Positions 38,111 through 39,200 of a stretch of DNA of 64,000 nucleotides are shown one piece after another. This DNA comes from Escherichia coli. GTDB taxonomy: Bacteria > Pseudomonadota > Gammaproteobacteria > Enterobacterales > Enterobacteriaceae. Under the pieces are notes generated by a model. That model was not told the DNA's origin. It made no database searches and saw nothing but the letters and a program-made list of their open reading frames with translations. Both the position numbers and the translations under genes were made by a program. Location of the stretch: assembly GCF_003334765.1 (NCBI RefSeq), contig NZ_QOWT01000001.1, one strand, 5' to 3'. Every line of letters begins with the position of its first letter. The first letter of the stretch is position 1.

Positions 38111-38869
38111 ATGAAGCTTTTGAAGACAGTTCCTGCCATCGTTATGTTGGCGGGGGGCATGTTTGCGTCACTGAATGCAGCTGCCGATGATTCCGTTTTT
38201 ACTGTCATGGATGATCCTGCCAGCGCTAAAAAACCTTTCGAAGGTAATCTGAACGCAGGATATCTTGCACAATCAGGCAATACGAAAAGCTCCTCACTTA
38301 CGGCTGACACCACCATGACCTGGTATGGACACACCACTGCCTGGTCGCTGTGGGGGAACGCCAGTAATACTTCTTCTAATGATGAGCGTTCTTCAGAAAA
38401 ATATGCGGCGGGCGGGCGTAGCCGTTTTAATTTAACTGATTATGACTATTTATTTGGTCAGGCAAGCTGGCTGACAGACCGTTATAACGGCTATCGAGAG
38501 CGCGATGTGTTGACCGCGGGTTATGGTCGTCAGTTTTTGAATGGCCCGGTACACAGTTTCCGCTTTGAATTCGGTCCAGGTGTGCGTTACGACAAATATA
38601 CCGACAATGCCAGTGAAACCCAGCCGCTGGGCTATGCCTCCGGGGCTTATGCATGGCAGTTGACTGACAACGCTAAATTTACGCAGGGTGTTTCGGTCTT
38701 TGGCGCGGAAGACACAACGCTGAACTCCGAAAGCGCATTAAATGTTGCTATTAATGAACATTTTGGACTGAAGGTGGCTTACAACGTCACATGGAACTCT
38801 GAACCTCCAGAGTCTGCACCGGAACATACCGACCGTCGGACAACCTTATCGCTGGGCTACAGCATGTAA
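38111..38869 (+). CDS. ydiY: Putative outer-membrane beta-barrel protein YdiY (DUF481)
   Basis: 252 aa with signal peptide and C-terminal aromatic residue typical of OMPs. Confidence 0.85.
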   Translation: MKLLKTVPAIVMLAGGMFASLNAAADDSVFTVMDDPASAKKPFEGNLNAGYLAQSGNTKSSSLTADTTMTWYGHTTAWSLWGNASNTSSNDERSSEKYAAGGRSRFNLTDYDYLFGQASWLTDRYNGYRERDVLTAGYGRQFLNGPVHSFRFEFGPGVRYDKYTDNASETQPLGYASGAYAWQLTDNAKFTQGVSVFGAEDTTLNSESALNVAINEHFGLKVAYNVTWNSEPPESAPEHTDRRTTLSLGYSM

Positions 38870-38921
38870 AATTATCTGCCGGACCGTGTTATGCGGTCTG
38901 GCTGTCTTCGTTTGTCACTGC

Positions 38922-39029
38922 TCAGCCCCAAATCATTGCTGCCCAACGTAGCAACAACATAGCGCCACAGATTGCCAGTAGCACCACCACCATCTTCCAG
39001 TGTTTTTTATCAAAGCGTTTAGTCGGCAT
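38922..39029 (-). CDS. yniD: Small membrane protein YniD (35 aa)
   Basis: MPTKRFDKKHWKMVVVLLAICGAMLLLRWAAMIWG, single TM helix; the frame stays open upstream to 39140 (72 aa) but the short form is preferred. Confidence 0.6.
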   Translation of the reverse strand: MPTKRFDKKHWKMVVVLLAICGAMLLLRWAAMIWG

Positions 39030-39200
39030 ACCAGTGTCCTGCATATCTCTTGTGCGTGATAACGGAGTGTAACAAAAGGGACAGGCATCAAGGGATTTTT
39101 TGTTATTACAGCCGTCGGGTGGCGTTGTGCACATGGTCACTGTTTCTGCGTTTTATGAAAAAAATAAAATTATGTATCGATATATATCGTAAATAGCTGG

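Follow-up and report, generated by a model that had tools for sequence, protein, structure and literature searches.

The reading frame of yniD, a small gene of Escherichia coli, remains open well upstream of the annotated start, which raises the question of whether YniD is also made in a longer form. In the window (the whole stretch of 64,000 nt that was analysed), the ORF list gives a minus-strand open frame of 72 codons at 38922..39140 that is continuous with the 35 codons of yniD. A sequence-only reading had offered two accounts of the added residues: a longer isoform with a Cys-rich head reminiscent of a small zinc ribbon, or a coincidental open frame. We conclude, with a probability of roughly 87%, that the extension is a coincidental open frame and that YniD is a protein of 35 aa, initiated from the ATG at 39029 behind its own Shine-Dalgarno sequence. 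The Cys-rich stretch is most likely an ordinary annotation artefact rather than a hidden zinc-binding isoform. Observed directly are the absence of coding constraint in the extension, interruptions of its frame, the missing Shine-Dalgarno sequence at its starts, a conserved element inside it and an insertion junction. The features of the locus are as follows.

38922..39029, minus strand: yniD coding sequence, 35 aa plus stop (RefSeq annotation, NF041491 and third-position substitution bias).
39030..39140, minus strand: proposed extension of 37 codons, with no coding signature (substitutions even across codon positions).
39201..40616, minus strand: 3′ portion of the frameshifted pseudogene espL1, named arpB in K-12 (ORF list and RefSeq annotation).
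38878..38902, no strand assigned: GC-rich hairpin between the convergent yniD and ydiY (terminator scan, scored on the plus strand as the ydiY side).

The source of the window is the E. coli B lineage, and a 901-nt stretch around the upstream frame of yniD is 100% identical to REL606. On the minus strand, espL1 (stop at 39201) is followed by a spacer of 171 nt and then by yniD (39029-38922), the espL1 stop lying 60 nt upstream of a GTG at 39140. Convergent with yniD on the plus strand is ydiY (38111-38869), and the hairpin at 38878..38902 is likely the shared terminator of the two genes. YniD is a small single-pass membrane protein with its start ATG at 39029, and RefSeq annotates it as a 35-aa 'small membrane protein YniD' (WP_001142445.1) in all strains examined; no annotated feature lies over the upstream stretch in 60 sampled genomes. 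Among 5,417 complete E. coli genomes, 5,406 have yniD DNA that is at least 99% identical to that of the window, a level that includes synonymous sites. Identity over the flanking 900 nt goes down to 93%, and the diversity of yniD is unusually low for a gene of 108 nt. Plasmid-labelled records account for 2 of the 5,419 places matching yniD and its upstream region. RefSeq labels espL1 here as 'type III secretion system effector EspL1, frameshifted', and arpB is a pseudogene in K-12. The gene, which occupies 39201-40616 and continues upstream to about 41100, is a type III secretion effector homologue with ankyrin repeats. It is frameshifted in the B and K-12 lineages; in O157, O145 and several further strains the annotation shows it as intact. 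A comparison with Rfam revealed no known RNA family in 38600-41800. In published text, yniD is mentioned with any substance in two connections only: genomic SELEX peaks that fall within the thrS-arpB spacer, and a single detection of YniD by proteomics. Genomic SELEX reports in vitro binding of RNA polymerase, and neither observation informs the start site.

Three upstream codons could serve as alternative starts, and these are set out here together with the Shine-Dalgarno sequence of yniD.

39132..39140, minus strand: candidate upstream starts GTGACCATG, GTG at 39140-39138 and ATG at 39134-39132 (sequence reading).
39042..39044, minus strand: ATG in frame with yniD and five codons ahead of its start, source of the 40-aa gene models (sequence reading).
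39037..39040, minus strand: AGGA, the Shine-Dalgarno sequence of yniD, 7 nt ahead of the start ATG (anti-SD duplex energy).

The frame does reach 39140, being open throughout 38922..39140, but the codon there is GTG and not the ATG that had been reported; the first ATG of the 72-codon frame is codon 3, at 39134. Translation confirms the 37 extra residues and their pattern of four cysteines, which stand at ORF residues 4, 11, 20 and 23 and form C-x6-C-x8-C-P-F-C. An upstream frame open for at least 37 codons was obtained in 11% of spacer shuffles, is expected at 17% from base composition and was found in 8 of 60 homologous loci elsewhere (13%), where the sequences are unrelated. Because of these three frequencies, the openness of the upstream frame is at chance level. 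At least four Cys in such a frame were seen jointly in 0.1% of shuffles, or about 1% given an open frame, a count that concerns a post-hoc pattern; one of its Cys codons corresponds to the TG in the conserved, promoter-like element described below.

Coding constraint was assessed over 80 yniD loci from one-genome-per-species assemblies, ranging from Escherichia to Pantoea, and 12 further E. coli sequences. The 35 codons of YniD, its ATG and its purine-rich Shine-Dalgarno sequence are kept throughout the homologous loci. Pooling four comparisons within Escherichia, substitutions in yniD fall 8/1/45 on codon positions 1/2/3, placing 45 of 54 at the third position (binomial p = 5e-14 against one third). 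In the same four comparisons, the 22 extension codons nearest yniD show 27/25/33, with 33 of 85 at the third position (p = 0.30). The variation at synonymous sites thus shows no coding constraint in the extension, 27/25/33 against 8/1/45 in yniD. In the comparison with E. albertii, 14 of the 22 residues nearest yniD are changed in the extension, and 1 of 35 in YniD; the E. albertii frame is open and retains, among the four cysteines, only Cys23. In E. coli E69, 10 of 105 nt of yniD depart from the common allele and the amino-acid sequence is unchanged, which points to an old or a recombinant origin of this allele.

Moreover, the upstream frame is not conserved in related species, being cut by stops in three other Escherichia lineages. 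An in-frame stop lies 22 codons upstream of yniD in Escherichia sp. MOD1-EC7003, and one lies 17 codons upstream in E. whittamii and Escherichia sp. E1V33, in which the codon for Cys20 is TGA. Across the homologous loci, 39 of 60 have a stop within 15 codons upstream. The nearer in-frame ATG, at 39044, reads ACG in MOD1-EC7003; conservation is lacking elsewhere as well, and other genera do not have this codon.

The signals for initiation also differ. Anti-SD duplex energy is -4.7 kcal/mol for the yniD ATG, against +0.2 for GTG 39140 and -0.2 for ATG 39134, so that by this measure neither upstream start has Shine-Dalgarno pairing. A purine-rich block (AGGA, GGAA or GAGG) occupies the Shine-Dalgarno position in nearly all 60 homologous loci. 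The sequence before GTG 39140 is A/U-rich and could allow SD-independent initiation. Furthermore, the terminator scan detected no terminator-like site between the espL1 stop and the GTG, so that the upstream starts could be present on transcripts reading through from espL1. In the arpB-yniD spacer of K-12 (NC_000913.3 1804967-1805161, window about 39227-39033), short unannotated plus-strand fragments are recorded by an RNA-seq compendium, and one of them ends at 1805134, coinciding with the transcription start of yniD predicted below. Among the searchable supplements of Cappable-seq, ROSE in vitro transcription, RNA-seq compendium, Ribo-RET/Ribo-API, N-terminomics and PIRT-seq studies, matches to yniD or to positions near 1805134 and 1805165 were confined to these non-decisive transcript fragments.

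Part of the upstream stretch is strongly conserved as DNA, and two further features are needed to describe it.

39066..39076, minus strand: TTTGTTACACT, extended -10 promoter-like element, TGn plus TACACT with the hexamer at 39071-39066 (phylogenetic footprinting).
39057..39060, minus strand: predicted transcription start of yniD, 6-9 nt past the -10 hexamer (from the position of the element).

The element TTTGTTACACT is invariant in 10 Escherichia and Citrobacter sequences, with flanks that diverge on both sides. Of 57 loci, 48 carry the pattern TGnTAnnnT at a distance of 28-36 nt ahead of the yniD ATG; they come from Escherichia, Citrobacter, Enterobacter, Kluyvera, Lelliottia and other genera. 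This spacing from the -10 to the ATG is 35 versus 36 nt among close relatives. Among distinct sequences, positions lying outside the search pattern are also fixed or nearly so (T-17 in 49/49, A-9 in 49/49 and C-8 in 48/49), and information content drops to background immediately on either side of the element. In TGT-TACACT (39074-39066), the TG occupies -15/-14, one base before the hexamer, and both A-11 and T-7 are present. The element therefore combines the geometry of TGn and hexamer with discrete conservation at promoter distance from yniD. There is no usable -35 for it, the nearest candidate, TTGATG, being 14 nt away, and a promoter scan returned nothing on the minus strand because that scan demands a -35 hexamer. 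We infer that TTTGTTACACT is probably the extended -10 promoter of yniD, which would give a predicted 5′ UTR of about 28-31 nt and a start at about K-12 1805134-1805137.

In the extension frame, the element is read as part of Phe22 followed by Cys23-Tyr24-Thr25, with the TGT of Cys23 being the 'TGn' and Tyr24-Thr25 being TACACT. It is because the element is read as codons that 'FCYT' seems to be conserved in frames that are otherwise broken. For the conserved block, sigma-54 was rejected by eye, the GG and GC dinucleotides being absent, and a sigma-E, sigma-32 or sigma-28 promoter and a LexA- or CRP-type operator were likewise rejected by eye. In Enterobacter and Lelliottia (loci L028, L029, L043 and L047-L050), a GC-rich hairpin with a T-run abuts the TTTGGTAGACT element about 60-30 nt before the yniD ATG, and the upstream terminator and the -10 element appear to overlap. 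Distant YniD homologues (loci L073-L091, from Pantoea, Erwinia and some Enterobacter) have an apparent GTG start after GGAGG and are without TTTGnTAnACT; in these, outside Enterobacteriaceae sensu stricto, the start and promoter of yniD are organised differently.

The rest of the extension has another origin, which is apparent from genomes that have no espL1.

39086..39087, no strand assigned: junction between the espL1-associated segment and the older DNA with the promoter and leader of yniD (extent of the match to espL1-free genomes).

No espL1 is present in E. coli E69, SCPM-O-B-8794, E. whittamii, C. gillenii and C. sedlakii. These genomes have thrS and yniD in divergent orientation, with about 300 nt between them. 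In most E. coli, an espL1/arpB-associated segment sits between the two genes, and in the window 2.6 kb separates their starts (41624 and 39029). The espL1-free arrangement matches the window over 41700-41573 at the thrS end and again from 39086/39085 onwards at the yniD end; the window sequence 41572-39087 has no counterpart in espL1-free genomes. Since homology resumes at 39086, codons 1-18, both upstream starts, Cys4 and Cys11 belong to the espL1-associated segment, and codons 19-37 fall in the older segment with the yniD promoter and leader. The junction is inside the frame and thus the four-Cys pattern is built from two unrelated pieces of DNA. In E69 (L012) and SCPM-O-B-8794 (L015), over 900-1310, espL1 is wholly missing and the arrangement is as in E. 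whittamii and Citrobacter. Escherichia sp. MOD1-EC7003 (L014, 474-1201) has a thrS-yniD spacer of 727 nt with short matches to 40411-40372 and 39309-39259, which looks like a remnant of an espL1 deletion and not like an intact or absent gene. In IHE3034 (L092, 390-410), an IS1 ends between …CATCACC and GCCTGTCCC, at the exact nucleotide where espL1-free homology begins; this breakpoint, about 10 nt ahead of the -10 element, is thus common to two independent rearrangements, perhaps by coincidence or perhaps as a preferred target site.

Within E. coli, the extension is at least 99% identical to that of the window, the K-12/B type, in 1,581 of 5,417 genomes (about 29%). Polymorphism was tallied on 12 E. 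coli sequences, in which the extension codons T2I, M3R/G, G10D, N13C, D18V, C20F, P26S and S28P vary, giving 8 non-synonymous codon changes versus 1 synonymous (at Cys4); the Cys20Phe change occurs in strain ECE204. GTG 39140 is conserved only within E. coli, and the codon at 39134, ATG in the K-12/B type, reads AGG or GGG in all aligned strains of other types. The IS1 of IHE3034 stands in place of codons 1-18, with the loss of Cys4 and Cys11, and adds an in-frame stop; yniD is intact. Codons 20-37 are nearly invariant in E. coli, and within-species data are therefore neutral for that part.

Taken together, the lack of constraint, the interruptions of the frame, the missing Shine-Dalgarno sequence at the upstream starts and a chance frequency of open frames favour coincidence. 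On this account, codons 19-37 would be an old yniD promoter, a -35-independent extended -10 at 39076-39066, with a leader of about 30 nt, and codons 1-18 are the right-hand end of the espL1/arpB-associated segment. The yniD mRNA would start near 39060-39057, and a start there would leave the upstream GTG and ATG off the usual yniD mRNA.

One alternative retains a non-coding extension and reinterprets the conserved block TTTGnTAnACT as the operator of a regulator or as a sigma-S type -10, and puts the start of the yniD transcript at another site. TACACT agrees with TAYRCT, the hexamer known from sigma-S promoters, and about 10 nt before the block there is another short stretch of conservation, CCTG. 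We nevertheless regard this reading as unlikely, given the exact TGn-hexamer geometry with invariant A-11 and T-7, and given that the block keeps a promoter-like distance from the Shine-Dalgarno sequence and ATG in at least 6 genera and comes right after a terminator-like hairpin in Enterobacter. Moreover, on sequence reading the block lacks the dyad symmetry typical of operators. The remaining alternatives concern translation. An E. coli-specific isoform of 72 or 70 aa, made from GTG 39140 or ATG 39134, would place a Cys-rich and perhaps metal-binding head on the membrane anchor, and the basic N-terminus of YniD suggests that this head would be cytoplasmic. The GTG is indeed invariant, and the frame open, in all aligned E. 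coli strains with an intact spacer; the interval from espL1 to the GTG has no terminator-like site and transcript fragments have been reported in the spacer; four Cys are uncommon by composition; and the model is often called by automated pipelines. Set against this, neither start has a Shine-Dalgarno sequence, only about 29% of genomes have the ATG, and the changes within E. coli are mostly non-synonymous, one of them removing a cysteine (Cys20Phe). IS1 deletes half of the extension in IHE3034 with yniD unaffected, sister Escherichia lineages carry stops, there is no significant domain match, and the frame spans both an insertion junction and a conserved promoter element. We therefore consider such an isoform very improbable, and the longer form with a zinc-ribbon-like head that had been proposed is left without constraint, Shine-Dalgarno sequence, conserved Cys or significant domain match.

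An isoform of 40 aa from the in-frame ATG at 39044 is also highly improbable. This codon is about 13-16 nt past the predicted 5′ end and so should be transcribed, and the corresponding model has been deposited for DH10B and on 934 contigs; it has, however, no Shine-Dalgarno sequence before it, the AGGA at 39040-39037 being downstream of it and serving ATG 39029. The codon is ACG in MOD1-EC7003 and missing in other genera, and the curated family model, like every homologue, begins with MPT or MPS. A separate leader peptide was rejected, as the frame enters yniD without a stop. It is just as doubtful that the espL1 insertion created a very young, E. coli-only extension, translated from GTG 39140 or ATG 39134 at a low level and independently of a Shine-Dalgarno sequence on read-through transcripts, in which a cytoplasmic Cys-rich peptide is fused to the anchor. 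If true, this would mean that coding sequence had arisen de novo from DNA spanning an insertion junction and a promoter, and a real long isoform would be a modest case of a gene lengthened in one lineage, with no major picture changed. For the coincidental frame that we favour, the relevance is mainly to annotation, as three start calls (72/70, 40 and 35 aa) circulate in public databases; the partial conservation of the longer frame would be accounted for by a promoter-like DNA element read as codons.

Lastly, we compared the frame with known families and systems. A zinc ribbon consists of two CxxC knuckles that bind one Zn. The extension is similar in having four Cys within 20 residues, one pair of which is C-P-F-C; its other pair, C-x6-C, is unlike a knuckle, the Cys are not conserved and no profile match is significant. 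In Pfam, the only match to the frame was to the zf-like PF04071, which was not significant (i-Evalue 0.07, 13.5 bits), and the 37-aa extension alone had zero matches in NCBIfam at E <= 10. A zinc ribbon or Cys4 domain was rejected on the absence of two knuckles, of a profile match and of Cys conservation. YniD itself (UniProt YNID_ECOLI, b4535; NF041491; Pfam PF28032) is identical to the C-terminal 35 codons of the ORF, and the NCBIfam equivalog NF041491 scores 82.9 bits (cutoff 40), with model positions 1-34 of 34 lying on ORF residues 39-72 only. The family model and its homologues, which extend from Escherichia to Rahnella and share the MPT/MPS start, include none with the 37-residue N-terminal stretch.

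The longer frame is an already known start-codon ambiguity. Models of 72 or 70 aa named 'transmembrane anchor protein' have been deposited many times (UniRef B7MAT3_ECO45 and Q0T4T2_SHIF8; GenBank ACB17735.1), with the 70-aa form on at least 1,000 contigs, and the 40-aa form reads MQDTG-MPTKR.... The 72-/70-aa models describe the same ORF as the frame studied here, from GTG 39140 or ATG 39134; they are uncurated longest-ORF start choices, whereas RefSeq/PGAP and UniProt YNID_ECOLI use 35 aa. The comparative evidence supports this curated start. As for the DNA beneath the extension, extended -10 promoters (TGnTATAAT) function without a -35 hexamer. The yniD element, whose activity and start site are predicted, has a hexamer, TACACT, that matches the consensus at 4/6 positions, and it resembles these promoters in carrying the TG together with A-11 and T-7 and in being without a usable -35.
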